From an uncultured virus (IMG/VR IMGVR_UViG_3300047661_000097) (taxonomy: Duplodnaviria > Heunggongvirae > Uroviricota > Caudoviricetes), in the IMG/VR virus record IMGVR_UViG_3300047661_000097: DNA of 64,000 bases; one strand, written 5' to 3'. The position numbers and the translations under genes were made by a program. Shown piece by piece: positions 4,345 through 31,240 of the stretch. How positions within the stretch are numbered: position 1 is the stretch's first letter; each line of letters starts with the position of its first letter. The notes under the pieces are model-generated. The model was not told the origin of the DNA and made no database searches. It saw only the letters and a list, made by a program, of their open reading frames with translations.

Positions 4345-4414
4345 AGCCCAGTGGCCACCTCGGGCTCTGAGCCATTGCTTGTTCCCCTGAAGAGAGGAGG
4401 GCATGCTGCTCGAC
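4345..4414 (-). promoter_or_regulatory. Conserved structured late-leader element, copy 1 of 5
   Basis: + strand core GAGCCATTGCTT(G/A)TTC...GGGCATG...CTC(G/A)A shared with 9856, 23716, 25298 and 31171. Confidence 0.75.
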
Positions 4415-4522
4415 AATATATTTCCTGTATAGTTTACCGCTATTGCACAAATACGACTACATGTAAATCAACGTCAAAGCCAAACATAAAACAACGTTTT
4501 CTATCTTTTATATTACCGATAA

Positions 4523-5452
4523 TTAAATCCATACTGCTACTAAAAGACTAGCCCCAGTATAGGTCCAAGAAAGAGTTGTCGAACTGTTAAAAACCTGTAT
4601 TTGAAGAACGCTTTCTGTTGTATTCCACCATGGAGATACTTGAATAAAGGTTGGCTGAGTAGCGTTAGGACCAACAATATAAGCTGATACGACGCTTGTA
4701 GCACTTTCACCTGTTACATGAATCGTACTTGTACTAAGTTGCTCTTGGGGTGACAAAGTTCCATCACCAAACGAAACACTTTGAACAATTGGTGACGAAC
4801 CACCTCCCGTTGCATTAATGGTGACAGTTCCCACACCGCTGGTGGGAGAAATTGTCACATTGGTTCCCGCAACAATCTGTGTAACCACGTTTCCAATATT
4901 CGGAATTAATTCCGCCCAAAAATTTGTGCCATCGTAAACCACCACAGCCACACAGCCTTGCGGAACAGGCATCGATGCCGCACTTAAATTATTATCGTAA
5001 GAAATTGTTCCATTAATCGGCGTTAGCGTTGCTGTACCAGCACCATAATTTAAAATGCTTGTAAACCAAGGTACAGTAATTGCTGGAGAAGACGAACTCA
5101 CGCTTAGCGTTACTGCAATGGCCGAGGCATCATCTAGAATGATGTATTTGCCATAATCCGATTGCACTGTGGTGTAAGCAGTTACTCCTGATTGATCGTT
5201 TACGTAACCAATAGTTGTCGTAGAAGTATTACTGACAACCGTTTCTGAGCCTGATGACGTGCTTGCAGTTGTTGTTGTCGCAGTCGTTGACGTTTTCGTT
5301 GTTGATGTCTGTTGAGACTTTAAAGAAGCAATCGCCTGATTTAAATCAAGGATTCCTTGAAAAGCGTTGCGATGTGCTATCTTCGCCCCTTCACTTTCGT
5401 TGGCAATTTCCGACTCAAATGGATAACGAAACGATTCTAAATTAATTGCCAT
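4523..5452 (-). CDS. Thr/Ser-rich tail/virion protein (start MAINLESF)
   Basis: Beta-rich T/S/V composition and a 'VTQIVAGTNVTISPTSGVGTVTINA' fibre-like motif. Confidence 0.55.
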   Translation of the reverse strand: MAINLESFRYPFESEIANESEGAKIAHRNAFQGILDLNQAIASLKSQQTSTTKTSTTATTTTASTSSGSETVVSNTSTTTIGYVNDQSGVTAYTTVQSDYGKYIILDDASAIAVTLSVSSSSPAITVPWFTSILNYGAGTATLTPINGTISYDNNLSAASMPVPQGCVAVVVYDGTNFWAELIPNIGNVVTQIVAGTNVTISPTSGVGTVTINATGGGSSPIVQSVSFGDGTLSPQEQLSTSTIHVTGESATSVVSAYIVGPNATQPTFIQVSPWWNTTESVLQIQVFNSSTTLSWTYTGASLLVAVWI

Positions 5453-5564
5453 TTTGTTTAGCCTTCCATGCCGTGCATTTAGGACATAAACCGTTTGGAG
5501 GGGGTGTAACCTGTATCGCTCCACAACGTTTGCATCGCCGTTCTGTAACCGTAATTTTTCCCAT
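5442..5564 (-). CDS. 40-aa CxxC...CxxC zinc-finger peptide (not in ORF track)
   Basis: MGKITVTERRCKRCGAIQVTPPPNGLCPKCTAWKAKQNGN. Start overlaps the upstream stop and follows GGAGGA. Confidence 0.5.
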   Translation of the reverse strand: MGKITVTERRCKRCGAIQVTPPPNGLCPKCTAWKAKQNGN

Positions 5565-8500
5565 TATCCTCCACCTCCACTTTCAGCAAAGGGCTGCACT
5601 TCTCTATAAGGCCCTGTCGATTCCCAATCTTTTACTTGCACAACAAAGTCTTCTAAATTGAGTTGAAACTGTATTGTGGAAGTAAACTGAAACCACAACA
5701 GTTTCCATTTGCTCGCGCCGCAGACAAGTTTTAATTTTGTTAGCTCACCGCTAGACGACGGAATTGTAATTGCCGGCGGCCCGTAACTGCCGTTATTTGC
5801 ATCCGCTGCATAGCCGGTTAGCGTAATCGTAGATGTGGATGAATACTCCACGATCAACACCGGTCCCAGCGTCTGCCACCCCTTTCCACCAATCGCTGGC
5901 GTCTGTACGATGGCTGTTCCTGTTTCCGTGCCGCCGCTGGCCAACTGGCGAATGCTTCCATCATTACAACCAACCAGCACGCCCTGCTGGCTTAAGCCTT
6001 CATTTGTTGCGTGGATCGAGGCTGGCCATTCATACACATCCCACACCCAACCCATCGCCTGAATATCAAAAACCAACGTTCGTGGAATACTGGTTGTGTC
6101 GACATAATCGTAGTAAAGATATCCATTTACGATTGAAAATTTTTGTAATTGCGGTTGCGAGTCGTCAGGCGGATAAACTGTTACGCCTTCTCGCGTTATC
6201 GGCTGTGGTACGCTGGTTCCGCCATCTTTATCTTCATGCGGAAAAAGTGACTCTAAATCCGAATCGGTAATAGATTTTGAAGCACCGCCTCCGGGCGAAA
6301 AGTGAATTCCGTCATCCACGCGAAAGAAAATTAGTCCTCCGCCTTCGATCGCTACGCAGCGCGGAATAAACAGTCCGCGGTTGATGCTTGTAGCCTGCAA
6401 GGTCCAAGTTGAACCAGTAGTCCCCGTTACAGTGGCTAAAGCATTAAAAAAGTTGGGCATGATGACCCATGCCCGCCGGATTGAAAACAGCACACCCCGG
6501 CCACCAGACATGGCACCGTTAACCAGAGGCTCGCCAGGATCGGTCACGTCCATTTGGTTGGTATCCGGTGCCGCATCAAGATTCGATCCCGAGCACCAAT
6601 AGAGCGTTCCCGGCCGCAGCGTATCACCCACGCCAAATGTGTAGTTGATGTTGTCCGTAGGGCCAAAAAGATACGGTAAAGGCTGCGCGGCCAGGATCGG
6701 TTCAGCAATTTCATAAGCTAAATCCGTTCCGTCAGGAACGCCAGGAATCGTAATTTCGTTAACAAAACCGTCTGGAACAACAATGCCCTTGTCCTTAAAG
6801 GTCACGGTTCCGCTCACCGTTGTACCGCCAGTAGTGCTAAAGGTCGGGGTTAAGCTGCCAGAAATTCCCGCCGCCGTAACAAGCTGGTAATGGCCATTGG
6901 TATCTTCAATAACCCAGTTCAAAGCATATGCGGTTAAAGCTGCAAAATAACTAGCTGAAGGCCGCGAAATAAACGTATAGGCCAAAGAAGTAGGAGAACC
7001 AATCTTGATAATTGTTCCTGCCAGCCAGCGCGTGTTGAACCCTGTTGCTGTGCCTCCAATTGCTCCCCCGCTAACCCAAGTAATTACGTTACTTGAAACC
7101 GTGCAAATTCCTTTCTGCGGCAAATCGATCGAGGGAAACGGTTCATAGTTGGTGTAAACAAGTAAATCTGTACCAAGTTCCGTGTCTGTTAACGAATCCG
7201 AAACTGGAGTATTAGTTCCACCGCCACCAAGATCATCATTTGGTCCCGTGCAAACGTAAGTAAAATCCGTGATGGATGTGTCAACGCGGTAGTAATCAAC
7301 CTTGTCAACTTGTGGATCGTTAGACCATAGCGATGTAATGGTGTTTGCTTTGACGGGAACAGATTCTGCCGTCGATTCAGGCGACGGATTAGAAGTTGCT
7401 CCCGTTGCGCTGGAGCGATACGTGTAGCGATACTGCACCTCTTCTCTAACCGTATTGCTCAAGGGAAGAACGATCGTCGGCGTAGTTACGCCAGATATCG
7501 TTGATGATGCAGTTGGAGAAACCATTAAAAGAAGAATGCGGCCGGAGTGGTACCAGAAGTCATAGTCGATTTCGATTGAATGAATTCCAGCCGACGCAAA
7601 ATGCAAAATTACAGTCGTAACCGTGCACTGACCGCCTTCGTTATAATAAGTTCCGTTATATTTCAGCGGAGCAACAGGCAAAAGAGCAATGCCGCTTACC
7701 ACTGAAATTGTTTGGCCATAAGAAGAAATTTGCGATTTACTTAACGTAACTGTTCCCGCAGTTGTTTCTTCATTATTGGTCATGTATGTTGCTGTGGCCG
7801 AAACAAAGGTGGGGCTTCCGCCAATGCCCCAGATTGTTTGGTCTTTATTGGTTAAAACAAATTTGTAATATCCCCCTGCTGGAATATAAATACTTCCAGT
7901 CAAACAAAAATTAAAGTTTGTATACGTTGTGCTGGTTGTATAAGTTGACGTTAGGGGTGAAGCAAACACGGCGTTCGAACCAGAAACAACACCCTCCGCA
8001 GTCAGTTGAAACCATTCCATCGGATTATTTATAACGTAGTCGGCAGTTCCGATAGAAATATCCACACCAGGTAGTCCAGGAATTCCGGCGGCAAGAGGCG
8101 GAACGCACGCTGTACCAAACGAGGCATCAAATATAAAAGAATTTCCTGTTGTACTTCCGTCCGCATTAGACGTTGAGCGGGTTGGTCCACTACCGCCAGA
8201 ATCATCTGGGTTTTTCCAGATGTAAGCTCCCACTTGACCTGACGACGGAGAATCTCCCCAATAACTAAGAGACAATGTGCCAAGTGTAGATACTACCAAT
8301 GGCAATGCATTAGTTGTTACTGTCACTGTAATGCTAAAAGATCCAGAGTTATTGCTAAAAGTGTTTCCGGTTGAGTCGATGCCGATTTGCAGCGACACGG
8401 CATTGCTGGGAACAGTAATCTCTATACCTAAATTACCGCCCACGTCCACAATGTTTTTGATATAAAGCGGAGCTTGGCCAGCGGCAATTACATTGCCGTC

Positions 8501-9829
8501 ACCATCCGTAAATGCTCCAATAATGATCGATGGAACCGTCGACGGAGGAGACACGCCGCCAGTCGGTTGCACGTAGTACCCTGGATTAGTTGAGGCCAGC
8601 GCCAGCCCTGCGGCCGTCGGGGTTGTAATTACGTTTCCGTTGATAATCACCGTGTCCGTTGGATCAGGAATGGTAATTGTCACGGTTGTTGCATTTTGCA
8701 CGTTAATTGTGTATGGCGCTGTTCCATCAACAGGAGAGGTAGTATTTGGGTAGCCTTCGGTTTCGCCGTAATCAAAATCCGAGTTTGTTCCCACTGGATA
8801 GTTTGTCCATGGGATTGCCGTTGCATACAACACACCGGTTGTCGTCACACTAGAATTCTCGGTGGAGACAGACGGAGCAAGTTGCGGCTCCTTAATGCCC
8901 ATCTTGTAGCAAACACCATCCGACCGAACCTTCATCATGCCGTTCGACGGAAAATCGTCAGCGGTATGGCCACCTCTGCTATTAGTAATTAAAAATTCTG
9001 TTTTGAGAGTAACGGCTCCTTGTATAGCAGAATCGCCGACATACATCCACGGCTGAACTGAAGTGTTTGGCCGAAAAGGAATCATTGAAACCGGATTGCC
9101 ACTTAATCCTGTCGCTACTACGGTAGTTCCAGAAAACAAAGTAGTATTGACACCGGTTATAAGCACATAACCATTTGATGGCCCGTTTGGCGTAGAATCG
9201 TTTAAACGGCGAATCGTATGTATCGCAGCAGGAGTCGTATAATAAATTGTGACAACAACACTATTAACATATGTCGTTGCTGTTATTCCGCTAAGATTCT
9301 CTACTTCAAATACAGGTGTAAACCCTGCGTTAATAATTGCCGGAGTAACATTCGCTCCCCATATAGAAGTACTGCTCCCAAACGTATATGTTGCGACTGA
9401 AGTCGTTAGCGTAGCTTTATCAACAGTTGCCCCTGTTATTCCAAGTCCAAAAGATAGCGATTGCGATCCAGATGATGCATATGCGTTGCAAGTTATTTCT
9501 ATGCCTGCGATTGTCGCGGTTGTTGGAATTGTTTGCGCGCCAATATTTAAGGATAACGTGCCTGATCCAGAATCGGCGTCTACAGATACTGAAGTGTATA
9601 ATGAGGTTGATGTTGCATTTGCAGGATTAGTCCAATAATCACTGCTGCACGTAATAGTGGGGACAAGACTATAGGGGTTTCCCACAACTTCAATCGCATT
9701 TGTAAGCAAATTGCGAAAGTTGATGCTACCAACAGAATAGGAACGAACATTTTGGGCAATACTTACCGAGCCGCTAAGCATGCGGTTTGGCGGGTGAGTC
9801 AAATCAAGCCCTTTGAAATTGAGCGCCAC
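5564..9829 (-). CDS. Large tail (nozzle/tubular-B-like) protein with inserted beta-sandwich domains
   Basis: About 1420 aa. Likely GTG start at 9829, because the track's ATG lies inside the leader element. C-terminal part resembles podophage nozzle/stabilisation proteins; the centre is PA14-like. Confidence 0.55.
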   Translation of the reverse strand: MALNFKGLDLTHPPNRMLSGSVSIAQNVRSYSVGSINFRNLLTNAIEVVGNPYSLVPTITCSSDYWTNPANATSTSLYTSVSVDADSGSGTLSLNIGAQTIPTTATIAGIEITCNAYASSGSQSLSFGLGITGATVDKATLTTSVATYTFGSSTSIWGANVTPAIINAGFTPVFEVENLSGITATTYVNSVVVTIYYTTPAAIHTIRRLNDSTPNGPSNGYVLITGVNTTLFSGTTVVATGLSGNPVSMIPFRPNTSVQPWMYVGDSAIQGAVTLKTEFLITNSRGGHTADDFPSNGMMKVRSDGVCYKMGIKEPQLAPSVSTENSSVTTTGVLYATAIPWTNYPVGTNSDFDYGETEGYPNTTSPVDGTAPYTINVQNATTVTITIPDPTDTVIINGNVITTPTAAGLALASTNPGYYVQPTGGVSPPSTVPSIIIGAFTDGDGNVIAAGQAPLYIKNIVDVGGNLGIEITVPSNAVSLQIGIDSTGNTFSNNSGSFSITVTVTTNALPLVVSTLGTLSLSYWGDSPSSGQVGAYIWKNPDDSGGSGPTRSTSNADGSTTGNSFIFDASFGTACVPPLAAGIPGLPGVDISIGTADYVINNPMEWFQLTAEGVVSGSNAVFASPLTSTYTTSTTYTNFNFCLTGSIYIPAGGYYKFVLTNKDQTIWGIGGSPTFVSATATYMTNNEETTAGTVTLSKSQISSYGQTISVVSGIALLPVAPLKYNGTYYNEGGQCTVTTVILHFASAGIHSIEIDYDFWYHSGRILLLMVSPTASSTISGVTTPTIVLPLSNTVREEVQYRYTYRSSATGATSNPSPESTAESVPVKANTITSLWSNDPQVDKVDYYRVDTSITDFTYVCTGPNDDLGGGGTNTPVSDSLTDTELGTDLLVYTNYEPFPSIDLPQKGICTVSSNVITWVSGGAIGGTATGFNTRWLAGTIIKIGSPTSLAYTFISRPSASYFAALTAYALNWVIEDTNGHYQLVTAAGISGSLTPTFSTTGGTTVSGTVTFKDKGIVVPDGFVNEITIPGVPDGTDLAYEIAEPILAAQPLPYLFGPTDNINYTFGVGDTLRPGTLYWCSGSNLDAAPDTNQMDVTDPGEPLVNGAMSGGRGVLFSIRRAWVIMPNFFNALATVTGTTGSTWTLQATSINRGLFIPRCVAIEGGGLIFFRVDDGIHFSPGGGASKSITDSDLESLFPHEDKDGGTSVPQPITREGVTVYPPDDSQPQLQKFSIVNGYLYYDYVDTTSIPRTLVFDIQAMGWVWDVYEWPASIHATNEGLSQQGVLVGCNDGSIRQLASGGTETGTAIVQTPAIGGKGWQTLGPVLIVEYSSTSTITLTGYAADANNGSYGPPAITIPSSSGELTKLKLVCGASKWKLLWFQFTSTIQFQLNLEDFVVQVKDWESTGPYREVQPFAESGGGG

Positions 9830-9855
9830 TTTGCCCTTATTTGAAAAAACAGCAA

Positions 9856-9922
9856 TGGCCCAAAACCATTGCTGGTCTTGAGCCATTGCTTGTTCGCCAC
9901 AGGGCGGGGCATGTTGCTCGAC
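9856..9922 (-). promoter_or_regulatory. Conserved structured late-leader element, copy 2 of 5
   Basis: Same core motif and hairpins as the other four copies. Confidence 0.75.
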
Positions 9923-9959
9923 GACTTATTTTACGCTTTTCATTATTTCATATTTGAGC

Positions 9960-11291: not shown

Positions 11292-11339
11292 TGCTTACCT
11301 TTTTGATGCCATGCGCTTTTCTATACAATCATCCAACAG

Positions 11340-11534
11340 TTATTTTCTGCTGGCAATCCTTTTTCTGCGTTTACCTTTTTTACTTAAAGACTTACGCGGC
11401 CCTATTCGACCTTCCTTACGCAAATACGACAACAAAATCGCTTTTGCCTGTTTCTTGTTACGGACGATTTTTCCTCTTCTTCCAGAATGTAGCTGGTGCT
11501 TGCGAAACTTTTTCATGATTTCGCCAGCGGGCAT
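11340..11534 (-). CDS. Small highly basic protein (64 aa)
   Basis: Very K/R rich, with 'MKKF..HQLHSG.RGKIV.NKKQAKAI.LS'. Confidence 0.6.
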   Translation of the reverse strand: MPAGEIMKKFRKHQLHSGRRGKIVRNKKQAKAILLSYLRKEGRIGPRKSLSKKGKRRKRIASRK

Positions 11535-11540
11535 AAACCC

Positions 11541-17507: not shown

Positions 17508-17885
17508 TTACCTGGTCAACAGCACCGATACATTTACAGGGTTAGTTAAAGTAACAAGTTTTACCCGCACATACTTTGCATAAAATGAAGGCAACTCTAT
17601 TCGCGTTACATACGAAGCATTTAACCCGACCGTAATTGCGTCGACAGTCACATAATGCGAATCCTGATCGATATCAGCATCTTGAAAATCAACTTCAAAA
17701 GCGCCGGGATTTCCGCTAAAAAAAATCTCCAGCGAAATCCCCCACGGATAAAACGTGCGGTTGACTCTTTCGATTTGAAAGGCAATGCTTGCCTCTCCCA
17801 CCGCAACCGTTTCGTTGTTCCACAAGTATTTCTGTCGGTTATCACGAATCAAAGCAGCTTGTGCTGTTCCCGCATAGCCTGGCAT
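17508..17885 (-). CDS. Hypothetical virion protein (125 aa)
   Basis: GGAGG RBS, in the structural operon. Confidence 0.55.
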   Translation of the reverse strand: MPGYAGTAQAALIRDNRQKYLWNNETVAVGEASIAFQIERVNRTFYPWGISLEIFFSGNPGAFEVDFQDADIDQDSHYVTVDAITVGLNASYVTRIELPSFYAKYVRVKLVTLTNPVNVSVLLTR

Positions 17886-17956
17886 TACTTCCCTCCTGCA
17901 AAACTCGGTACAATAGAAATGCGGTTGAACACCGCCATCTCATTCGAGGTGAGATC

Positions 17957-18478
17957 ATGGCCAAGTATCGAGTCGAGCGCGAGTCTGTTGTCCAACCGCT
18001 CGATCAATCTATCAAACTTATTCCGCTGACAAATGGCTACGTTGCCGTTGTTGATGCTTTCAACTATGAATGGCTGATGCGTTGGAATTGGTACGCATTC
18101 TGGAATATATCTACTCATTCTTTTTATGCTCGGCGAGCGCACAATGGGCCATTGATGCATCGTTTTATTCTCGGTTTGACTGATCCAAAAATAGAGGGCG
18201 ATCATCGTGACGGCAACACATTGAACAATCGGAGCTACAACCTTCGCGTAGCTACTCGCCAACAAAATAGCCAAAATCGCGGGAGCTACAAAAACAACAA
18301 AAGCGGGTATTCCGGTGTGATATGGCACAGTCGAGATCAAGTTTGGCAAGCATACATAAACACAAATGGAAAACGCACACACCTCGGTTATTTCCGCAAT
18401 AAGGATGACGCTTTCTTTGCACGCGCTATGGCAGAGATTGAACAGCATGGCCGGTTTGCACATATTCTTTATCATTAG
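17957..18478 (+). CDS. HNH homing endonuclease with C-terminal AP2 domain
   Basis: 'MHRFILG...DHRDGNTLNNRSYNLR' followed by 'NKSGYSGV.W...WQAYI...HLGYF'. GAGGTG RBS. Antisense to the late operon. Confidence 0.9.
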   Translation: MAKYRVERESVVQPLDQSIKLIPLTNGYVAVVDAFNYEWLMRWNWYAFWNISTHSFYARRAHNGPLMHRFILGLTDPKIEGDHRDGNTLNNRSYNLRVATRQQNSQNRGSYKNNKSGYSGVIWHSRDQVWQAYINTNGKRTHLGYFRNKDDAFFARAMAEIEQHGRFAHILYH

Positions 18479-19567: not shown

Positions 19568-20575
19568 TTAAAACTGTCCGACAAATGCGCAAAGCTGAAG
19601 AGTTTCTCCTGATAGATTTTGACCAGAAACTACCTCTCCTCCAACTGAAACTCCTGCGCTAACAGTCGCAGTGGTAGCTCCCGAAATGGTCACTGTGCCT
19701 GTCGTGGTAAGTGCTCTGCCATTCAGCGTGCCGCCGCCAAGAGTAACGCCGCTCACCGTCAGAATGTTTCCGTTAACTGTCGAAGTCGCTACCGAAGTAA
19801 AAGCACTTCCCGCCACAAAAACAACATTCGCTGCTTGGGCACCGTTTACTAGTGCGACTGTTTGTCCGCTGGCAAGATTGATCGTTGATCCCGCCACAAA
19901 TACAAACACAGCATTTGAATTGCCTTGGGCGTCCAAAATGATGCCTGTAGGCATCGTCAAGCTGGTAGAACCAAAATAGTTGCCGGCAGTGTACGTCGAC
20001 GCTGTCGACCCATTACCGCCAGTACTTAAGTTGGTTAGGCCAGACAATGTCGGCGTCAATCCCTGGTAATAAACAATCGCCGCCGTTAGGGCTGTTTGTG
20101 CGGCCGCTGCGTTGGTGTTGTCGATTACAGCTGGAGAGGTTAAAGTGCCTGGGGGAAAACCGGTAATGCTTGTAGTGGGATAGCTCCCGATGTTTCCGCC
20201 CGTAACAACCGTATTCCCTGTGTTTGTAATGCCGGAATATGCCAGCATCGCATAGTTAGCGGCACTGCCAAGACGTGTGGTAACAACTGAACCACCACCG
20301 CTCGAGCTGGCAAGAAACCACCGCAAATACCATGGTTGCCGAGTGCCGATTGCGGTTGGCCCTGCGTAAACCACATAATTCTTGCTTACGCTCTCCACAC
20401 CACCAACAAGCGCATCAATGTAATAGTTTGGCAGCGCCAGCGTTACCAGATCTCCCGTACCAGCAACATAAGATACAGGCCCAGAGCCACTCCCAACAAA
20501 GAGTCCACGCCGGCCAGCAAATTCTGGATAGAGTGCGCTAGCACCGGTATTTCTTCCAATTGCTGTGAGAATCAC
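19568..20575 (-). CDS. Virion protein with inserted ice-binding (DUF3494) domain
   Basis: 'LGSAANYAMLAYSGITNTG...TSITGFPPG...LDAQGNSNAVFVF...LVNGAQAANVVF...NGRAL' matches DUF3494. Flanks are paralogous to 20617-20979. Confidence 0.85.
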   Translation of the reverse strand: MILTAIGRNTGASALYPEFAGRRGLFVGSGSGPVSYVAGTGDLVTLALPNYYIDALVGGVESVSKNYVVYAGPTAIGTRQPWYLRWFLASSSGGGSVVTTRLGSAANYAMLAYSGITNTGNTVVTGGNIGSYPTTSITGFPPGTLTSPAVIDNTNAAAAQTALTAAIVYYQGLTPTLSGLTNLSTGGNGSTASTYTAGNYFGSTSLTMPTGIILDAQGNSNAVFVFVAGSTINLASGQTVALVNGAQAANVVFVAGSAFTSVATSTVNGNILTVSGVTLGGGTLNGRALTTTGTVTISGATTATVSAGVSVGGEVVSGQNLSGETLQLCAFVGQF

Positions 20576-20988: not shown

Positions 20989-21849
20989 TTAGTCCTGAAC
21001 CACCGGCACACTGTTCAAGTAAATCTTGAACAAGTTCAACGAAACCGGAAGATCAACAGCTTGGCCAATCGTTGCTGTCGTTGGTGACGCTGTAGCCGAA
21101 GGAGCAATAACCGTTCCACCAGTCGTAGCTTCAACCCAGTTACTAACAGCAGCACCAGCGCCAATTGCCGAATAGCCCAAAACAGTCGCCGTACCAAGTT
21201 CTTGAACAAAGCCGTAGTTACCTGGCGTAATCGAATTCAAGAACACAACCGGTCGTACGGTACCAACACCAGGCAAGGCAGCACTACCAGCCGTGGCAAC
21301 ATCGTAGCTAGTCACTACATTCGGGCTTGTGCTTAGCTGCGCAGCGATCGTGCCGCCGGCTGTGCCGGTAATCGTCAACGAAAAGGCAGGAACAGAAGTG
21401 TAGCCATAGCCAGGCTGCACAACGGTAGCGCTCGTGATTGTGCCAGTAGAGCCAACAACAACCTGAATTACCGCATTAAAACCACCGCCGCTGCCGGCAG
21501 TTGCCGCAATGTTGTAAGTTCCAGTTGTCGCTCCCGTGCCAGCAGCCGTAATCACAACGCCAGCTACAGTGCTCCCAGCGCGCACGTAACCGACAGTTCC
21601 GGTCTTTACATTGGCCGCTGTGGCGCCAGAATCAACTTGCACAAAGCGATACCGCCCTGCATATAAAGTGCCGGTGGTCGTGAACGATCCTTGGAACGCT
21701 TCCTGATTGGTAGCGTCAAAAAAATCGCCAAGGTTCAATCCACCAGCCGCAAACGGCTGTCCTGTACGAAGATCTGTAATCGCAGTCGGCGAGGTAAAGT
21801 TCCCGTTATTCCATGCCAACCAAGTAGGCACAATAGGCTGAAAAGGCAT
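20989..21849 (-). CDS. Putative capsid decoration / minor capsid protein
   Basis: G/T/A-rich, immediately downstream of the major capsid region. Confidence 0.5.
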   Translation of the reverse strand: MPFQPIVPTWLAWNNGNFTSPTAITDLRTGQPFAAGGLNLGDFFDATNQEAFQGSFTTTGTLYAGRYRFVQVDSGATAANVKTGTVGYVRAGSTVAGVVITAAGTGATTGTYNIAATAGSGGGFNAVIQVVVGSTGTITSATVVQPGYGYTSVPAFSLTITGTAGGTIAAQLSTSPNVVTSYDVATAGSAALPGVGTVRPVVFLNSITPGNYGFVQELGTATVLGYSAIGAGAAVSNWVEATTGGTVIAPSATASPTTATIGQAVDLPVSLNLFKIYLNSVPVVQD

Positions 21850-22397
21850 TAGACTATCTCCTTCGCTGTTGGCAATGCGCTTTCAATTAGCGCGTTGCTT
21901 GCGTTATTCACATCGAGCAAATCCCATCGGTCTTCCATATCTATAAGCCGCTGTTCAGTAACTTTCTTAAACACCCTACGGTTGTTTGAATTGCTTTCAA
22001 ATCCTTTACGGCTAAACCAAACTGCTTTTTCAGCATGAGCAGTTGGCAAAATAAAAAATCTGTTTTCGTCAACGCCCCACAATACAAAAAAATCAGCAAC
22101 TTCTGAATATGGCCGTAAATTGCTGCGCTTAACTTTCTTTGCATTGCTATCCCATGCACCGCGTCTCAATGCAAAACCGTAGGCTCCATTTGGATAATTG
22201 ACGCCACTTTGAATCCGCAAATGTGCGGTCTTAACTTGAATGCGCAATCCGTTATCCAAAACAATGTCGTAACCAACATCAAGTCCCGGAAAAAGCGGGA
22301 TATGCCCACGCATAGCAAGTTGAGAAGATACCGCCCACACGCCTGCTTGCGCCCTTAATTGAAAATCTTTTCCGTACTGTCTGTTAACAAGCGTCAT
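21849..22397 (-). CDS. PD-(D/E)XK endonuclease, free-standing homing-type
   Basis: 'GYDIVLDNGLRIQVKTA' motif, inserted between capsid genes. Confidence 0.75.
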   Translation of the reverse strand: MTLVNRQYGKDFQLRAQAGVWAVSSQLAMRGHIPLFPGLDVGYDIVLDNGLRIQVKTAHLRIQSGVNYPNGAYGFALRRGAWDSNAKKVKRSNLRPYSEVADFFVLWGVDENRFFILPTAHAEKAVWFSRKGFESNSNNRRVFKKVTEQRLIDMEDRWDLLDVNNASNALIESALPTAKEIV

Positions 22398-22404: not shown

Positions 22405-23637
22405 TTAGGCAGTAAAGCCAAACGCATAGTTAGAATGCCGCGGCTGAGTATTGTATAGGTTTGTTCCAAGCCGCATGAACAAAGCATCGATGCTCACGTT
22501 GTTCGGCATCGGCGCGCGACGCAGTCCGAAGTTCCAGCCCTTCTTATTTGTTGGGCGAATCTTGAAGCTTTCCGGCTCCAAGAAATAAAGCACTTCAGAA
22601 GGCTGAATTGTCGTATTTGAAGGCAAGCCAGAACCAGTCGGCGATGTCGTGACAGGCGCGCCATTCTTCGTAAACTGCGGCGTGGTAAACGAAACTGTTG
22701 CCGTGCTCGATCCAACGCCGTCAGCAAGATTTGTGTTGCCTGCCGCGCCATTGGCTGGTGCCAATTCAAGGTAGTTTTGAGCTTGAACGGAAGGAGCAAG
22801 CGGATCGGCATAAATATCAACGCCGTTAAAGTTCAGTCCATCCCACTTGATGTCGTGCTTGGTATTCGAAATATCGCGCCGCTGCGCATCGAGCGCAACC
22901 GCAACCGCCTTAAATCCAAACACGTTCGTGATCCCGAGCGTCGGATTGCCGCCAGTCACTTTGCACTGCGACCAAAGCTGCATCAACGCCGCAAAATCGA
23001 TCTGGCCAGTGGCACCAGTCGATGTACCCAAATACAGCGGCGTGGTGTTCAGCGCGGTTCCAATATTTCCATTGCGCGCCTGACCGCCGTACGTGGTGTA
23101 AATATTGCCGTACACCGAGGGATCGATCCCGTTATTCAACGCTTCGTCCAGGCCGTTGATCGTCTTAATACGATTGTCCTGAACCGTTGTCGAAGAAGGC
23201 TGACCGTGACGAAACGAATCCATCTCCTGCATGGTGTTCATGGTCATAACCATGGCTTCCATGTAGAGCTGGTACTCGTCGACAATCCGCGACGGGCCGG
23301 AGTTGATAACGCCTCCGGTGCCGGAGCCGTCATCCATTTCCCAGTCATCCAGCGGATACCAAGTCGCGTACGCCTTTGGCAGGAACTTGATGCCGGTGTT
23401 GATCTGCTGGCGAGTAACCGTAACAGTTTGGCCAGGATTTACCGCAGCACCCTGCGTACGTCCGTAGAGGATGCCTTCCATCATGCCCGCGCCGCCCAGG
23501 AACTCATCCCAAACACCAGCACGACGCAACTTAGCTTGGAAAGGAGTGTCCACAAACAAGTTGTTATAAACGACGTTTTTTCTTACGCTTTCTAAGTTAC
23601 TCGCGTCGATTTCGTTGTAAAGTGGGTCCGTTGGCAT
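22405..23637 (-). CDS. Major capsid protein
   Basis: 410 aa after a scaffold-like gene, with 'INGLDEAL' and 'GLNFNGVDIYAD' and strong codon bias. Confidence 0.75.
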   Translation of the reverse strand: MPTDPLYNEIDASNLESVRKNVVYNNLFVDTPFQAKLRRAGVWDEFLGGAGMMEGILYGRTQGAAVNPGQTVTVTRQQINTGIKFLPKAYATWYPLDDWEMDDGSGTGGVINSGPSRIVDEYQLYMEAMVMTMNTMQEMDSFRHGQPSSTTVQDNRIKTINGLDEALNNGIDPSVYGNIYTTYGGQARNGNIGTALNTTPLYLGTSTGATGQIDFAALMQLWSQCKVTGGNPTLGITNVFGFKAVAVALDAQRRDISNTKHDIKWDGLNFNGVDIYADPLAPSVQAQNYLELAPANGAAGNTNLADGVGSSTATVSFTTPQFTKNGAPVTTSPTGSGLPSNTTIQPSEVLYFLEPESFKIRPTNKKGWNFGLRRAPMPNNVSIDALFMRLGTNLYNTQPRHSNYAFGFTA

Positions 23638-23715
23638 ATAAATCCTGTCCTTTCAGCGTGTTACTTGGTTATTCCGTAACCATCAATCTTGAATTTTTTT
23701 CCCAAAAACAAAAAA

Positions 23716-23777
23716 GGCTCAAGCCATTTCCGGCTTGAGCCATTGCTTATTCCCCGAAGGGGGGCATGTGTCTCGAC
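23716..23777 (-). promoter_or_regulatory. Conserved structured late-leader element, copy 3 of 5 (upstream of capsid)
   Basis: Minus strand ends in GGCTCAAGCC-GGAAAT-GGCTTGAGCC-TTTTTTGTTTTT, a perfect terminator-like hairpin. Confidence 0.8.
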
Positions 23778-24820: not shown

Positions 24821-24843
24821 AACAGTGTTTTCTCCCGAAATTT

Positions 24844-25158: not shown

Positions 25159-25162
25159 TTAA

Positions 25163-25270
25163 TTAAGCCTTAATGGCGCTTTTCTTGCCACGGCCCTTGC
25201 GGCCACGAGCTTTGCGGCCCCTCTTCAGGTGACTCGCCTTCACAGCTTTAACGCGATGACGCTTTGCCAT
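25163..25270 (-). CDS. 35-aa protamine-like peptide (not in ORF track)
   Basis: MAKRHRVKAVKASHLKRGRKARGRKGRGKKSAIKA, with an AAGGAG RBS. Confidence 0.65.
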   Translation of the reverse strand: MAKRHRVKAVKASHLKRGRKARGRKGRGKKSAIKA

Positions 25271-25297
25271 GATGTTCTCCTTGGGTTGAAATAGAAA

Positions 25298-25364
25298 TGG
25301 CCCAGGGGCCATTTCGGTCCTGAGCCATTGCTTATTCCCCAAGGAGGGGGGGCATGCCGCTCAA
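25298..25364 (-). promoter_or_regulatory. Conserved structured late-leader element, copy 4 of 5
   Basis: Core motif, preceded on the minus strand by TTGACA-N17-TATATA. Confidence 0.8.
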
Positions 25365-25411
25365 TATCTTTTCGATATATATGACTTATATTACTCTTTG
25401 TCAAGCACTAA

Positions 25412-25651
25412 TTACAAAATTTTTGTACCTATGCCTAATAAGTTGCGAGTTTCTTCCACAAGAAGCTCCGGAATTCTAGTACGTTGCTCTACATTTACTC
25501 CTTGATGTTTGCCTTGGTTGTACTGAATAACCATTTTTCCGGTCGTACCGGTTGCTTTAAGTATTTCATCGACCTCGGCGACATTAGCAGGTAATTCAAT
25601 GCTGGCTTCAGTCACGAAGTAATCTTTTTGAACAGCAATCTGAAAAGGCAT
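25412..25651 (-). CDS. Hypothetical protein (79 aa)
   Basis: AAGGAG RBS. Confidence 0.55.
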   Translation of the reverse strand: MPFQIAVQKDYFVTEASIELPANVAEVDEILKATGTTGKMVIQYNQGKHQGVNVEQRTRIPELLVEETRNLLGIGTKIL

Positions 25652-25669
25652 TCGTATCTCCTTCTGTTT

Positions 25670-27757
25670 TTACGATTCACTAACAACGGTTCTGGGCGTG
25701 CCACCTTGAGAACCTTTTTGTTTTAATTGCGGTGCTTTTGCTCCGCTTGGGGGGCGACCACCACTACCTTTCCCCTCACCACCACCTTTACCGCCACCGC
25801 CACCCTTACCACCGCCTTTTCCGCCACCCTCCTGCGGAGACTGAATTCCTAGCTGCTGCATTAACTGCTGAGCAGCAGCGGCAGCAATGATCTTAAGTTT
25901 TTGCATTTCAATTTCTTCGTTAAACCATTTTTCGCGCTCGGTGTTGCCAGGCACATCGCCGTAATTCGGCACGTCAAGTTTTTTCATGACTGTCGCCCAT
26001 GAAATAGGGGCATTTCCGCGCTTTAGTTGCAAATACTTCATTTGCTCTTGCATCTGCGTAATACGCAGCAAGGTGCTCGGCACAGAAACTAAACGAATTT
26101 GCTTGGCAAACCAACGCGCGCGCGTTAAACGATCATACTGGGATGAATTTGGCGGGAAATTTCCACCAATAAGTTCATCCGGCATATGGCTAGGAACCAA
26201 GTCATCCGGATTGAAATCAAAAACCTCCCTGTCGACTTGATCTGGGCCAACATATTCCATAACCCGTTTTACGTTGAACCATTGCAAAATAAGAAACTTC
26301 ATGCGCTCGCCAATGGCCTTATTTGCTTTTTCAATCCTTGCCGCAATGCCCTTGGCAATAGGCCCAATTGATTCCAGCATCTTATCGGCCGTTTCATTGG
26401 CCAAGTTCATTTTGATGTTTTGCAGATTTCCTAAGTCTTGTAACCCTAATTGCGACTGTTTGCAGTTTTTTAGGTACTCTAAGAACTTAAAATGTTCTGA
26501 ATTGACGCGAACCTCTTCAGGCAAAATCGATTGCATAATTTTTTTGGGCTCGCCATCAACGCCGTACCGAACGTCTTCTTCAAAAATGTCAAAATGCTCA
26601 ATTTTTGCGCCACCGGTCGCGGTGTGATCGTAACCAATTGGTGGGTTTAGCGTAGCCGTAATAACTTGATCGATTTTTCGTTCAATTTTTCGAGTTGTAA
26701 TTTCGATCGAACCGACATCGCCGACCAAAGATCGTCCCATCGGTTCCCAAGCCCAATCATCGACAACATACTGAATGACCGGCATCTTACCGTCCCAATC
26801 GAATGCTGGCCCGTCGTACATTGGTCGATCCAAACCCGCCGAAGTGATAATGAGCCTTAGATTTGGATATACGCGGCAATCCTCGATGCTTCCCGGTCGC
26901 ATGTAAGGCATTCCGTTGCGCATCCCGCCAAAAATCATTTGGCCAACGTAGGGCACTTTGTAAAACCAGCTTGTGTTCGGATCGCCCATTGGCAATTCAA
27001 AACCAGTATTATTGATACGAAGATCTCGAATGAACGTATAGCGGATCTCCGTATAGAGATTTCCGAAACTACGACCCTGTTCGCCGTAACGGTAGCGCTC
27101 TGCATAATCCAAGCGTCGCGCTTGCGTTTGTGTTTTGTAGCTACGCGGCCCAACTGTCTGCAAAAGTCCTTGATAAAGTGGAAACCGGCCATGAGCTTCC
27201 GCAATCGGCATGTAATCGTAAATTGTGACCGCATAGGCATCTTGCACATCATTGGTTCGCGGAATTTGTACCGGAACAACATCTAAAAGTCCTAAAGCTT
27301 CGAAAACGATCTTGCGTTCGCCGTATCCATATTCATCGGCACGCACTTTAGGCCACAGATACCCGATGCCCATTACGCTGGCATATTGCAGGACTTTTAA
27401 AATCTGGAAGGGAAAATCTGATTCTAGATAGACTGCCCTAGAAACCTTAGTAAGCATTTCTGCAAATTTTTTATAGGCGGGAAAATCGGAACCATAGGCT
27501 GCAATTTCGCGAACTTCAGCCAAAGTCTCGCAAAATTTACGAATATCGTACTTTAGCTCATTCGTTATGAGTGTCGATCGCGATTTATCGCGAAAAATCG
27601 CATCAAACACACGTAGGTTAGCGCCCAAATTCTTGAAGCAGGTTTGACCCTCTAAGAAACCTTCGCCTTCTTGAATTTGTTCTTCAACCCATCCAGCGCG
27701 AACGCTGGGTGACGACTCAAAGCTTGGTACTTGCCAGCAGGTTGTATCTAACTCCAT
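25670..27757 (-). CDS. Portal protein
   Basis: 695 aa between terminase and scaffold, with a Q/G-rich C-terminal tail as in P22-like portals. Confidence 0.7.
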   Translation of the reverse strand: MELDTTCWQVPSFESSPSVRAGWVEEQIQEGEGFLEGQTCFKNLGANLRVFDAIFRDKSRSTLITNELKYDIRKFCETLAEVREIAAYGSDFPAYKKFAEMLTKVSRAVYLESDFPFQILKVLQYASVMGIGYLWPKVRADEYGYGERKIVFEALGLLDVVPVQIPRTNDVQDAYAVTIYDYMPIAEAHGRFPLYQGLLQTVGPRSYKTQTQARRLDYAERYRYGEQGRSFGNLYTEIRYTFIRDLRINNTGFELPMGDPNTSWFYKVPYVGQMIFGGMRNGMPYMRPGSIEDCRVYPNLRLIITSAGLDRPMYDGPAFDWDGKMPVIQYVVDDWAWEPMGRSLVGDVGSIEITTRKIERKIDQVITATLNPPIGYDHTATGGAKIEHFDIFEEDVRYGVDGEPKKIMQSILPEEVRVNSEHFKFLEYLKNCKQSQLGLQDLGNLQNIKMNLANETADKMLESIGPIAKGIAARIEKANKAIGERMKFLILQWFNVKRVMEYVGPDQVDREVFDFNPDDLVPSHMPDELIGGNFPPNSSQYDRLTRARWFAKQIRLVSVPSTLLRITQMQEQMKYLQLKRGNAPISWATVMKKLDVPNYGDVPGNTEREKWFNEEIEMQKLKIIAAAAAQQLMQQLGIQSPQEGGGKGGGKGGGGGKGGGEGKGSGGRPPSGAKAPQLKQKGSQGGTPRTVVSES

Positions 27758-27835
27758 TCATAACTGCTTTCCTCCTCGGTAAGCTACTATCGTGCATAGT
27801 ACTTAAAAATCGGCTTTTCGTCCACAACAAGTTAG

Positions 27836-28225
27836 TTAACGATGCTGTTCGTATGCTTCGCTGTGCAAATAGCTAATGCGTTTTTGCTTGGTGCGATCTT
27901 CACGCTTGTCGTAAAGCATTAAATGACGTTCCAAAAACTCCCGATTAATTGCATTGCGTGCATTCGATATTTGCCACAAAATTTGTTTGCGCAGCGCATC
28001 TCGTATCGGACCTTCAACCATTTCACGTTTTTGATTATTTATTTCGCCATTCATTGCTTCCCAAGTGCGCATTTTCTCCGAACATAGTTCGGCCTCGTGC
28101 GCCGTATTGCACACAACTTTTTCAAAACCATCTGGTGCCGGATATGCTTCTGGTAGTCCCATGCGCCATTCTTTGGTCGTTGGGCTAAACCAATAAACGA
28201 TTTTTTTGCTTAAATTAGCACTCAT
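27836..28225 (-). CDS. Hypothetical protein (129 aa)
   Basis: ORF between terminase and portal. Confidence 0.55.
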   Translation of the reverse strand: MSANLSKKIVYWFSPTTKEWRMGLPEAYPAPDGFEKVVCNTAHEAELCSEKMRTWEAMNGEINNQKREMVEGPIRDALRKQILWQISNARNAINREFLERHLMLYDKREDRTKQKRISYLHSEAYEQHR

Positions 28226-28231
28226 GGTTGA

Positions 28232-30841
28232 TTAATCCCATCCTCCTACCCCAACGGCATTAAGGGAGCATACAGAGTGGCTAAGCGGCGGATTTATATT
28301 TGTTGGCGGTGAATAGCGTCGTTGCGCACGATCCGCCAATACATCCATGTCGTGAACCGTAAAGTACGATTGCGCAGCTGCGCGTACGCGGTCGTCATGG
28401 TAACCGCTACGATGCACCATTTTTGAAGCTCGGCCGGCGGCTTCATGGCGCTCCAGGGTCTTTAACTCTTCAATTAGCCACTTTGACGACGGTCGATACC
28501 AACCTCCATTTACGGCTTCCGTAAAGCGCGTCATCAAAATAGGCACGCTCCATACGTTTGAATACCAACCCTGCTTTTTGCTTGAATCGTCTTTAATCTT
28601 TTGGCTATCGTAGCGCTTTGGCTTGTGATGGTTATGGAATCCCATTAGCTTGAGCTGGTGTTGGCAAGTATCGCCAGGTCGGCTGATCTGTTCTACGCAA
28701 AATTTGACACCCAACGGGTTTTTGGTTCGTTCGCCATACCAAGCAGCTAAACAAGCAGCAAAGCCTACAATTTGTGCTGAATTTATCCTATTTGAAGTAA
28801 GTTCTGCCACTTGAATATCGCACTCATCACCAAATCTATTACGTGTCAAAGAAACGCAAGTGCGATCTTCATCCTCTTTTCCCAAACCATCAGCTGTATC
28901 AATTCCGCAGCTATAATCACAGCCCGGTTTTGGCTCTTCGTAAACCAAAAGCTTGTCTAGGGTATCGTTTTCTTCTTCTTCGTCTACCGTTTTTAATGGC
29001 ACCAAAGTCCAGAAAAATCTTTGTCCGCGGTCCGAAGTCCAATTAACACGAATATGTTGTTTTTCATAATCAATAGTCGTTTCATCAGGGTAAAACTCTT
29101 TGCCAATCGAATCACCAGTAATCGCGTATGCCTGAATTGGATTTTTTCTTTCAGCTTTACCATTTGGCTGAATTTCATAAACATACTTTTCGATTTCATC
29201 AATCACGTCAGAATCAAAAACACTGTCATGAACACCAGTTAAAGCCTCAAAATCATCGGCAGCCATTTGTGCAAACCAGATTTTTTGAGTATGGTTCTTG
29301 CACGCTTGGGAATAGTTAAACTCCCAGAACCATTGCTGCTCAACTGGCATTCTCCAATCTTTGCCTACTACTTTAGTTAAATATGGAGTATTACGAACAT
29401 AAAGTTCGCAACGCGTTATATGTTTGCGCGTGGCATCAATTGGATGCCAATCGCCAGGAATAGGAAATTTTCGAATCCAATCTTGCTCGGGATAAAGATC
29501 CGGCACCATAACCCAAGGAATAAAAATCGGGCAAAGCCGTGAGCGCCCTTTAGGCCAGTCTTCTTTAGCTGCGCGCCAAGTATCGGCCAGCCAGCCGGTG
29601 TTGCCGCCACCAGTTCCTTCAAAAACCAAAAACAAGTTGCGAGAGGAGTGAGTGGCCCTAAGTAGACCTTCCTCGATCACTTTCTTCGGTTTAGGTATAT
29701 CCGCTAACTCAGAAACGTGAATGGCCGTAGGTGTCCATCCTTGGGCAATTCCGGTCGCTTGCATACCAGACTGGATCGATAAGATCGATCCGTTCTCGTA
29801 GGAATTTTTTGATGTAGCTCTAGGCACAAGCCACCAAGGACATTGGTTGTAGACAGTATTTAAAATACGGCCGATCAATTCGGATTTATCCGATTGCACC
29901 GAAGCCATTACAGCTTGCGTATGTGGAATGAATAGCAGCTTATGAATAAATTTCAACGCGGTTTTGGTAGAATTATGCGATACAAACCCCTCGGCAATAA
30001 AGGTATGCGTTGAAGTTTGGATGTCAATCATCCGCTGCGGCGGAAGGGACTCCACCTTTACAACTTTTTTTAATTCAGTTGTTAGTTTAACTATTTTTTC
30101 AGATTTAATTATTCGCTCTTTGCCAAATGCGACATATCTGATTTTGTCGCCAACAATAATATCTTTGGTAAACTGCCAGCAAGCCTTTGTATTTTTATAG
30201 CCTAAAAAGCGGTGTTCTGGCGTCGCAATTAGTATGCGGCCGTCTTCAAACGTTAATCGTATTGCAGGTTGAAACACATCCCATTTAGCTTTAATTGTTG
30301 CCGTACTCATATACCATTTTTGATTATTTGTGTTAATTTCTTTTACAGCTACGACTTCTTCGCCAATAGCTAAATCATCAATCCGTTTCCACTCCAATTG
30401 TGCAGTAAGGACTTTCGTATCGGGCGATAGGCACATACCAACTTGCCGCGCCTTGATAACAAGCAACTCAATTGAAACTTGTTTTTCGTCAAAGTCCGCA
30501 ATTACTGAATCAAATATTTGTTGGGAAAGCCGGTTCTTAAATTTATAGATTTGGCCTTTTTCATTGCACACGTAGGCATAGCGGCTTTCAAAATAATTCG
30601 AGTCAAGGCCGCACAGTGCCTGCTCATTTTCAATCCAATGCCAAACTTCTTTACGACGTTTTTCAGAGATGGTACGGGTAAGAGTTACGTATGAAGATCG
30701 AGAGTTGCTCTCAACTTTTACAATAGAGTTGATGTAAGTCTTAAATTCATCTACTTGTTCAAGGGTATGATAGGTCGGCATCCATCCTTCGCGAGCTGCA
30801 AACTCGGTCAGGTTCGCCAGGATTACTCGTTCAGAATACAT
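28232..30841 (-). CDS. terL: Terminase large subunit with intein
   Basis: Walker A 'KARQVGM/ST', Walker B 'IHVSE', nuclease 'GIDTADG' and 'HDDRV'. Confidence 0.9.
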   Translation of the reverse strand: MYSERVILANLTEFAAREGWMPTYHTLEQVDEFKTYINSIVKVESNSRSSYVTLTRTISEKRRKEVWHWIENEQALCGLDSNYFESRYAYVCNEKGQIYKFKNRLSQQIFDSVIADFDEKQVSIELLVIKARQVGMCLSPDTKVLTAQLEWKRIDDLAIGEEVVAVKEINTNNQKWYMSTATIKAKWDVFQPAIRLTFEDGRILIATPEHRFLGYKNTKACWQFTKDIIVGDKIRYVAFGKERIIKSEKIVKLTTELKKVVKVESLPPQRMIDIQTSTHTFIAEGFVSHNSTKTALKFIHKLLFIPHTQAVMASVQSDKSELIGRILNTVYNQCPWWLVPRATSKNSYENGSILSIQSGMQATGIAQGWTPTAIHVSELADIPKPKKVIEEGLLRATHSSRNLFLVFEGTGGGNTGWLADTWRAAKEDWPKGRSRLCPIFIPWVMVPDLYPEQDWIRKFPIPGDWHPIDATRKHITRCELYVRNTPYLTKVVGKDWRMPVEQQWFWEFNYSQACKNHTQKIWFAQMAADDFEALTGVHDSVFDSDVIDEIEKYVYEIQPNGKAERKNPIQAYAITGDSIGKEFYPDETTIDYEKQHIRVNWTSDRGQRFFWTLVPLKTVDEEEENDTLDKLLVYEEPKPGCDYSCGIDTADGLGKEDEDRTCVSLTRNRFGDECDIQVAELTSNRINSAQIVGFAACLAAWYGERTKNPLGVKFCVEQISRPGDTCQHQLKLMGFHNHHKPKRYDSQKIKDDSSKKQGWYSNVWSVPILMTRFTEAVNGGWYRPSSKWLIEELKTLERHEAAGRASKMVHRSGYHDDRVRAAAQSYFTVHDMDVLADRAQRRYSPPTNINPPLSHSVCSLNAVGVGGWD
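29972..30433 (-). mobile_element. Mini-intein (154 aa) in TerL Walker A
   Basis: Begins CLSPDTKVLT, has block B 'ATPEHRF', ends 'FIAEGFVSHN' followed by Ser. Too short for a homing endonuclease domain. Confidence 0.92.
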
Positions 30842-30868
30842 GCAGCTCCGGAACTCCGAAGCGAAAAG

Positions 30869-30994
30869 CTATGTTTTTCCTCGCACGCCTTTGCTAGATA
30901 CTTTGCTCATTCGTTTACCAACGCCATGAACGGGCGGTCGCATCTTTTTTAGTTGCACGAGAATTACATTGCCTACACGCTTTTGGGATTTCAT
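30869..30994 (-). CDS. 41-aa basic peptide (not in ORF track)
   Basis: MKSQKRVGNVILVQLKKMRPPVHGVGKRMSKVSSKGVRGKT, with a GGAG RBS. Confidence 0.5.
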   Translation of the reverse strand: MKSQKRVGNVILVQLKKMRPPVHGVGKRMSKVSSKGVRGKT

Positions 30995-31017
30995 GCGAAG
31001 CTCCGGGGCTATGATGA

Positions 31018-31131
31018 CTAACCTTTTACGGCAATAGTTTTGCTAGCGCGTTTGCCTAGCTTTTTAAGGCGGTCAGTGCCTTTACGGACCTGCGCACACT
31101 TTGCTGAACTAATACGTTTGCGAGATGCCAT
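31018..31131 (-). CDS. 37-aa basic peptide (not in ORF track)
   Basis: MASRKRISSAKCAQVRKGTDRLKKLGKRASKTIAVKG, with an AAGGAG RBS. Confidence 0.6.
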   Translation of the reverse strand: MASRKRISSAKCAQVRKGTDRLKKLGKRASKTIAVKG

Positions 31132-31170
31132 TGTGTTATCTCCTTGGGAATAGAGCACAAAAACAGAAAC

Positions 31171-31240
31171 GGCTCAAGGCCATTTCTGGTCCCGAGCCAT
31201 TGCTTGTTCCCGCCTAGCAGCGAGGGGCATGTCGCTCAAC
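31171..31240 (-). promoter_or_regulatory. Conserved structured late-leader element, copy 5 of 5
   Basis: Core motif, preceded on the minus strand by TTGACA-N17-TAAATC. Confidence 0.8.

Follow-up and report, generated by a model that had tools for sequence, protein, structure and literature searches.

In a 64,000-nucleotide stretch of DNA from an uncultured virus of the Caudoviricetes (IMG/VR record IMGVR_UViG_3300047661_000097; the whole stretch is hereafter called the window), five copies of a short leader RNA element stand ahead of late genes, where they probably form a protein-dependent switch run by a phage protein. The fuller account, in which this switch on the late genes would be read by p79, a protein of 79 amino acids (aa) encoded beside one of the copies, is held with slightly better than even confidence; both proposals are drawn from comparative sequence analysis. 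A first-pass annotation of the same DNA had proposed a terminator/antiterminator-like leader controlled by a protein or ligand, with nut/put sites or a riboswitch as analogues. Our results support the terminator/antiterminator reading, in that both helices covary, the copies are confined to late-gene leaders and Rfam has no match. They favor a phage protein acting element by element over a ligand or processive control of the nut/put type. The earlier reading lacked a candidate protein, the translational copies, a third helix and the copies outside phages.

Two competing folds in late-gene leaders

The 16-base block GAAYAAGCAATGGCTC has five exact matches in the window, all on the minus strand (4369, 9880, 23737, 25322, and 31194), and no further match there when up to three mismatches are allowed. 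Shuffled sequence gave a mean of 1.39 matches to the block at the three-mismatch setting, with at least five matches in 3 of 100 shuffles, while the five real copies have zero mismatches and share a GAG-nnn-CATGCC block upstream and an inverted repeat with a U-rich run downstream. Two covariance models recovered the same five copies and no sixth over the window, so that the number of copies first claimed is confirmed by both kinds of search. The positions first given for them (4345, 9856, 23716, 25298, and 31171) mark the 3′ terminator arm, not the element. All five copies are intergenic and sense to late genes. The family had not been recognized in the first-pass annotation, and it matched no known motif in Rfam, either in the window at the gathering score (0 matches) or, on the element, in six motif loci and two loci of the DUF2292 family searched in E-value mode.

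The core is a bulged stem of 38–45 nt, GAG..CAUGC / GCAAUG.GCUC, with a variable inner hairpin. It runs from GAG through 2–3 nt, a 5-base strand, CY, the variable hairpin P2, an A-rich loop of 4–5 nt and a 6-base strand with one bulge to G and CUC. The outer helix P1 is composed of GAG/CUC, a purine-rich loop, a 5-bp helix with one bulge and a CY/AAYAA loop, and it encloses P2. The pairing of GAG with CTC had been seen before and stands, but its extent was larger than described, as CAUGC also pairs with GCAAUG around one bulged base; the spacer after GAG, given as 1 nt, is 3 nt. Among 38 diverse copies, 95.4% of P1/P2 cells were paired and 8 of 11 pairs showed two-sided change. The covariation score was 0.374, compared with 0.168 after shuffling and no more than 0.109 when the controls were slid; as the structure derives from these very sequences, the slid control is lenient, and kinship among the sequences inflates the result of the shuffle test. 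The compensatory series CAUGC/GCAAUG, CAGAC/GUCAUG, CACGC/GCGAUG, CGUGC/GCGGCG, and CGCGG/CUGGCG is direct comparative evidence for P1 pairing.

The 3′ strand of the core doubles as the 5′ arm of a long GNRA-capped terminator hairpin, and this downstream part can fold two ways. In 27 copies the long terminator was 97.8% paired, with two-sided change in 4 of 14 pairs. A 3′ terminator arm was found in 140 of 153 distinct class-I matches, whose hairpin energies were computed with a fixed consensus 5′ arm, and at least 5 U occur within the next 8 nt in 124 of these 140. The remaining 13 matches comprise seven terminators missed by the filter, one chance match and five without a terminator. In window copies 4 and 5, the two states differ little in folding energy (about -28 versus -28 to -29 kcal/mol). 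Such closeness, and the existence of read-through RNA described below, would also suit constitutive terminators that leak, or hairpins affecting RNA stability, which would fix gene dosage and have spread by duplication, with no regulated switch. This is highly improbable, because a fixed terminator has no need of conserved unpaired loops, a bulge, a covarying rival helix, terminator-less copies or an exchange of gates linked to p79.

Five distinct copies have no terminator, and in these the C-rich arm of P2 pairs with the G-rich ribosome site ahead of a small basic gene. Here the rival helix buries the Shine-Dalgarno site in place of forming a terminator, and the folded core would be the ON state in both designs. 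The presence of two expression platforms on one core is typical of riboswitches, and the conserved purine-rich internal loops could form a pocket, which raises the question of a small molecule, an ion or a host-protein site that ties virion production to host state. This explanation is quite unlikely, as Rfam has no match, the core drifts by phage lineage and within genomes, and the element is not a regular host element (one credible match to the model in 151 Acidobacteriaceae genomes, and none before metabolic genes among the copies judged real). Even less likely is ribosome-dependent attenuation, in which the AUG of the conserved block, together with the G-rich 3′ arm of P2, would serve as a start site where a bound ribosome blocks the terminator. 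An AUG or GUG does lie a few bases past the G-rich run in 27 of 38 aligned copies, but the other 11 have no start codon there, most such changes are compensated in the pairing strand, and window copies 1 and 2 open frames of unequal length in different registers.

A repeat of the conserved strand lies in the terminator loop region and is also able to pair with the 3′ arm, giving a short third helix that is compatible with the folded core and absent from one clade. It is followed by a median of 4 U, compared with 6 after the long hairpin. This helix is probably a lock on the ON fold that forms past the termination point; alternatively, the polymerase may also have to be modified. The third helix complicates a simple two-state model.

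Gated genes and distribution of the element

The features described here lie on the minus strand unless stated otherwise. A sigma70-type promoter (TTGACA-17-TAAATC, 31251–31279) lies 13 nt before the core of copy 5 (31155–31237; core 31194–31237 plus terminator), a spacing that is kept in relatives. Copy 5 heads two basic peptides and the terminase-portal-p79 block: a 37-aa Lys/Arg-rich peptide immediately 3′ of the copy (31018–31131), a second basic peptide of 41 aa (30869–30994), a large terminase-like gene with an intein (28232–30841; PF14890 E 1e-8, phrog_5989 E 4e-4), a portal-like gene (25670–27757; phrog_156 E 1e-4) that is a core gene in 10 of 10 records, and p79 (25412–25651), a candidate RNA-binding antiterminator. 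Another sigma70-type promoter (TTGACA-17-TATATA, 25376–25404) lies 8 nt past the p79 stop and serves copy 4, the universal copy (25285–25362; core 25322–25362 plus terminator), immediately 3′ of which a 35-aa Lys/Arg-rich peptide is encoded (25163–25270). Copy 3 (23705–23774; core 23737–23774, terminator 23716–23741 plus U-run) is located between the scaffold-like and capsid genes and gates the major capsid protein gene (22405–23637). Copy 2 (9844–9919; core 9880–9919 plus an 18-bp terminator) precedes a 1,400-aa virion-type gene with a probable GTG start near 9829, and copy 1 (4334–4411; core 4369–4411 plus terminator) stands ahead of a Gly/Ser-rich gene starting near 4319, downstream of which are two large genes. 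The gene labels proposed earlier fared unequally: the capsid gene has a weak match (phrog_9953, E 8e-7), while the tail and ejection labels, with no Pfam or PHROG match, rest on position. The two TTGACA promoters noted earlier proved to be those of copies 4 and 5, the only window copies with a TTGACA-17-hexamer promoter 13 nt before GAG; no promoter passed the pattern search at copies 1–3. Wherever a promoter was recognized, the core lies 11–20 nt past its -10 box.

The window represents about half of a phage genome, with endolysin, capsid-, portal- and terminase-like genes, single-stranded DNA-binding protein (SSB), methylase and primase-helicase. Relatives are 120–143 kb long; two have terminal repeats and two are classed as proviruses. 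The family is taken to consist of large temperate phages of 120–140 kb from soil and peat. The exact pattern occurs at 83 loci in IMG/VR and at 4 in GTDB genomes, two of the latter being acidobacterial metagenome-assembled genomes (MAGs). From these pattern-bearing records, the acidobacterial MAGs included, the hosts are probably Acidobacteria. Applied to the window together with nine phage records and six further loci, the second covariance model gave 44 matches, part of which belonged to its training set; 42 were intergenic and sense to late genes, one fell in a coding region and one was marginal. All nine other phage records examined carry one to eight copies each (G005 8, G003 7, G002 7, G004 5, G007 3, G011 2, G009 2, G010 2, and G008 1, with 5 in the window). 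The copy common to all records is the one behind p79, and records G008, G009, and G010, which have no gate before the terminase gene, retain it. A 64-aa basic gene at 11340–11534 has gates before and after it in relatives and none in the window.

Several other features of the window were recorded. The late region contains mobile inserts: the terminase-like gene carries its intein, a PD-(D/E)XK gene (21849–22397) follows the capsid gene, and an HNH-AP2 gene (17789–18478) lies on the opposite strand. An ice-binding-like domain (19568–20575; PF11999 E 2e-32) belongs to a probable virion protein that is a paralogue of the adjacent 120-aa gene. Between a helix-turn-helix (HTH) gene and the gene for p141, 15 copies of a 26-nt imperfect palindrome with a TTGCATCTGYYCGATGCAC core (32835–34066) look like an iteron or operator array. 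On the plus strand, six promoter-like repeats stand before probable early genes (37337–43961), most of them followed by a conserved short hairpin and a ribosome site. Seven repeats at 45044–45931, spaced 135–141 nt apart, each form a strong GC hairpin with variable sequence between, and may represent an array of small-gene cassettes or of non-coding repeats.

p79 as the candidate reader

Core genes that lack a structural label encode p79, p129, p275, p112, p141, and an HTH protein. Among these, p79 was present in 47 of 47 capsid loci, a non-redundant choice from 80, and the element followed it within 137 nt in 43 loci, within 1,500 nt in 46 and, in the one remaining locus, at about 1,515 nt. 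At three loci with distant relatives of p79, the gene, promoter, GAG..CTC-type leader, terminator and basic peptide stand in the same order, with leaders diverged beyond the reach of the covariance model; a search with one of these relatives as query returned no locus. Across 34 loci, the distance between RNA cores correlated with that between p79 proteins after removal of portal and capsid (partial r 0.44) and after removal of all six other genes (partial r 0.45). The same test gave 0.09 for the basic peptide, -0.04 for p104, 0.08 for the scaffold protein and -0.05 for p129. These correlations are suggestive. In addition, loci L162 and L151 share 94% DNA identity up to the end of the portal gene and again from just past the terminator, and have no alignable DNA in between, where p79 (43% identical), promoter and gate are exchanged as one block. 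A weaker second case involves L157 and L144 (58%). Taken together, the sequence comparisons favor p79 as reader of the RNA element, at a little more than an even chance.

The same switch might instead be read by another phage product, namely p141, p112, p275, the 99-aa HTH protein, the Lys/Arg-rich peptides, a gene outside the window or a small RNA acting in trans. The first four are core in 9–10 of 10 records and lie upstream of the first late promoter, a position like that of lambda Q, so that their expression would precede every gate. By analogy with lambda N, the basic peptides can be likened to arginine-rich RNA binders, and the window covers only about half of the genome. We regard another reader as unlikely, though as the foremost of the alternatives. 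The basic peptide does not track the RNA and is identical in L162 and L151 despite their differing gates, p141 has only leads to a primase helical domain, and the swap exchanges p79 together with the gate and leaves the neighbors in place. The correlation test covered p79, portal, capsid, basic peptide, p104, scaffold and p129; the structure model of p141 (predicted local distance difference test, pLDDT, 48) was too poor for a fold search.

With p79 as the reader, the scheme would run as follows. The unbound leader RNA would terminate transcription or, in the ribosome-site copies, stay untranslated, and a phage-made protein would bind and hold P1 so that the polymerase reads through. As p79 lies at the end of the terminase-portal block and before the universal copy, the packaging genes would be expressed first, and p79 would then open the gates of the capsid, tail and lysis-side genes; where p79 too is gated by copy 5, the feedback would be positive. 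After read-through, the third helix with the 3′ terminator arm would lock the ON fold.

RNA libraries are consistent with part of this scheme. Contigs from peat metatranscriptome studies were mostly at least 99% alike to the window, and the figures that follow hold among the matches listed. Contigs of four studies end at 25366, 25363, 25352, and 25357, near the predicted start at about 25369, and all four sets run across the copy-4 terminator. Copy 5 is spanned by one contig and copy 3 by three, which end at 23753, 23753, and 23767. These ends and crossings fit a working promoter at copy 4 and read-through RNA. The low contig cover over the portal and terminase genes was set aside as evidence. 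Separately, contig ends from two studies coincide at 23753, inside the P2 hairpin of copy 3, where the RNA may be processed or reverse transcriptase may have stopped.

A number of points weigh against the account given here. The contigs give neither strand nor level, DNA may be present among them, and RNAs cut short by termination would be missed. The third helix is 93.3% paired with two-sided change in 5 of 10 pairs, and at least 5 U follow it in 48 of 140 copies, among them window copies 2 and 5; with the helix conserved and a U-run in some copies, holding P1 may not prevent termination there. The scheme provides no initial trigger where p79 itself lies behind copy 5, and P1 sequence varies among copies inside one genome (G007, G003, and G005), so any reader must be tolerant. 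For p79 in particular, the partial correlation drops to 0.25 in a diverse subset of 18 loci, the permutations ignore kinship, and p79 adjoins the tested copy, so that linkage alone could yield both the correlation and the swap. The protein is not basic (8 K/R versus 10 D/E) and has no significant match in Pfam or among PDB sequences. Its structure model (beta-alpha-beta-beta-alpha, pLDDT 88) had no Foldseek match in PDB or BFVD at E 0.001 or better (best VIA Z 3.7), a result that excludes no fold. The homodimer prediction score was 0.26 against a mark of 0.42 and was counted neither for nor against. The sole lead for the p79 family is a weak resemblance to DUF2292/YezD, for which hhalign gave probabilities of 2.3% and 7.6% (P 0.02 and 0.0046), below significance, and the Atlas score was 0.81 with 184 shared features, under the 0.9 bar; PF10055 matched 0 of 39 and 0 of 48 members.

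The persistence of the short third helix and U-run in the P1 fold of some copies calls for more than strand competition, and the position of the cores 11–20 nt past the -10 box, where a promoter is present, would suit a loading site. The core might accordingly modify the elongating polymerase, nut-like with a protein or put-like without one, so that it ignores adjacent and later terminators. This is improbable, as a processive system has no need of an own terminator or ribosome site at every copy in up to eight repeats, the translational copies cannot act through polymerase, and P1 and the terminator physically have a strand in common. A phage protein acting element by element is preferred to processive control, since a terminator or ribosome-site partner accompanies each copy.

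Copies beyond these phages and comparison with known systems

Elements outside a phage context score 30.6–50.6 bits, L085 and L087 being members of the model training set. Among 141 metagenome loci, 35 had no phage protein match, of which 8 look real and the others are chance matches in coding sequence; L084 was likewise dismissed as a chance match. In L087 (1731–2447) and L292 (205–914), the element stands before a BrnT toxin-antitoxin pair beside host genes (PF04365 E 2e-22 and 4e-24), and in L247 (605–1534) after a BrnT pair beside ParA. In L256 (850–1690) and L265, from one sample, it lies between a TacA-like antitoxin and a GNAT-toxin-like open reading frame (ORF) that is split between frames and has no Pfam match. 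L257 (261–1140) carries it ahead of a 123-aa ORF of unknown function, which might be ADP-ribosyltransferase-like, with no Pfam match. The element of L085 (4627–6826) follows an integrase at mnmE and precedes a primase remnant, and that of L410 (4954–5295) precedes an HTH_17 gene (excisionase-type HTH). PADLOC found no match on the gated toxin-like ORFs. Decay or misassembly may instead be involved, given short contigs and the degenerate 5′ ends of L085, L087, and L257. Such copies are rare in Acidobacteriaceae: the model search gave one credible match in 151 genomes, and a relaxed pattern matched 43 of 401 genomes, with one real case among four picked by eye. A host riboswitch was considered and rejected, the model matches in G252, G255, and G279 falling in coding sequence. 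Among the real copies seen, none stands before metabolic genes.

From these gene neighborhoods, the element appears to have been captured by defence modules and satellites, which suggests that hosts or parasites sense late infection, and a gate beside toxin-antitoxin genes could possibly serve a phage-triggered abortive defence. A broader proposal is that p79 is the founding phage member of a hitherto unrecognized group of small RNA-binding activators related to DUF2292/YezD, and makes up with its RNA site a swappable cassette for specificity that times virion assembly by antitermination and translation, with the RNA captured by hosts and satellites so that the late activator triggers toxin-antitoxin genes, as abortive defence, or satellite replication. 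We consider this proposal doubtful as a whole. The DUF2292 link, if true, would open a direct experiment on that family of unknown function.

The resemblance to DUF2292/YezD/OscA (PF10055) consists of a helix-strand-strand core shared with p79 over 38–39 columns, and three Acidobacteriota DUF2292 loci have short GA-bulged stems behind the gene, as seen by eye. However, p79 has an extra N-terminal strand and a C-terminal helix and no PF10055 match, and the RNA covariance model did not match the hairpins behind host DUF2292 genes. At one Acidobacteriota locus (L234:1090–1255), a c-di-AMP riboswitch lies upstream of a DUF2292 gene.

Lambda N/nut and HK022 put are well-known antitermination systems. 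Lambda Q binds promoter DNA and polymerase (PMC11364771). The phage switch would take the role of lambda Q while working in the manner of RAT and ANTAR systems. Copies 4 and 5 are similar to the lambda Q arrangement in that a host-type promoter, a short leader and a terminator hold late genes off. In contrast, the conserved feature here is an RNA pairing, recurring before each block of genes, and each copy excludes the fold of its own terminator. A credible gene of Q, N or NusG type was not found among the 125 window ORFs in Pfam and PHROG; a single zinc-finger-only match to a Q-like PHROG had an E of 6e-4. Like riboswitches, the element places one conserved core on more than one expression platform, a terminator or a ribosome site.

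The ANTAR dual-hairpin is described with a 13-mer in eut (AGCAANGRRGCUY) that overlaps the 5′ terminator arm, several copies per operon, and two six-base loops with A1 and G4 (PMC3369931). The phage block AGCAAUGGCUC recalls this 13-mer and also overlaps the 5′ terminator arm, but it is 2 bases shorter and hence leaves no six-base loop, there are no tandem hexaloops, and its bases pair with the upstream CAUGC strand with two-sided changes. No ANTAR domain was matched by Pfam in the 125 window ORFs.

The stem of a ribonucleic antiterminator (RAT) has internal loops and a variable top. In the BglG/SacY/LicT systems, according to a 2025 review, the RAT is a stem-loop of about 30–45 nt that partly overlaps an intrinsic terminator, and the bound protein is thought to allow read-through (PMC12591593). 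The phage element is similar in that its antiterminator stem was observed to overlap the 5′ terminator arm. It differs in having no sequence match, in serving virion genes rather than sugar operons, in its up to eight copies per genome, and in its translational copies and third helix. The CAT RNA-binding domain of these systems had no Pfam match in the 125 ORFs of the window, which is about half of the genome.

No description of the element was found in the literature, a search in which most subscription papers were out of scope. Its motif strings and three contig names are absent from four supplements of Fremin et al. (2023; PMC10690425), with the alignment archives and three large files outside the search, and it may be among the 10,006 uncharacterized candidates of that study; PMC11109978 has no passage on phage or Acidobacteria. 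In the late switches known from phages, control runs via promoter DNA, factors bound to polymerase or new sigma factors. Antiterminators that bind RNA site by site have been described for bacterial metabolism, and the word phage is absent from the searched text of the review (PMC12591593). Here, RAT-like logic appears to run a whole virion program with a 79-residue protein and a 40-nt RNA, which would make p79 and its RNA a minimal pair with natural orthogonal variants. Compared with these systems, the logic is known, while the RNA family, the protein family and the use appear to be new.

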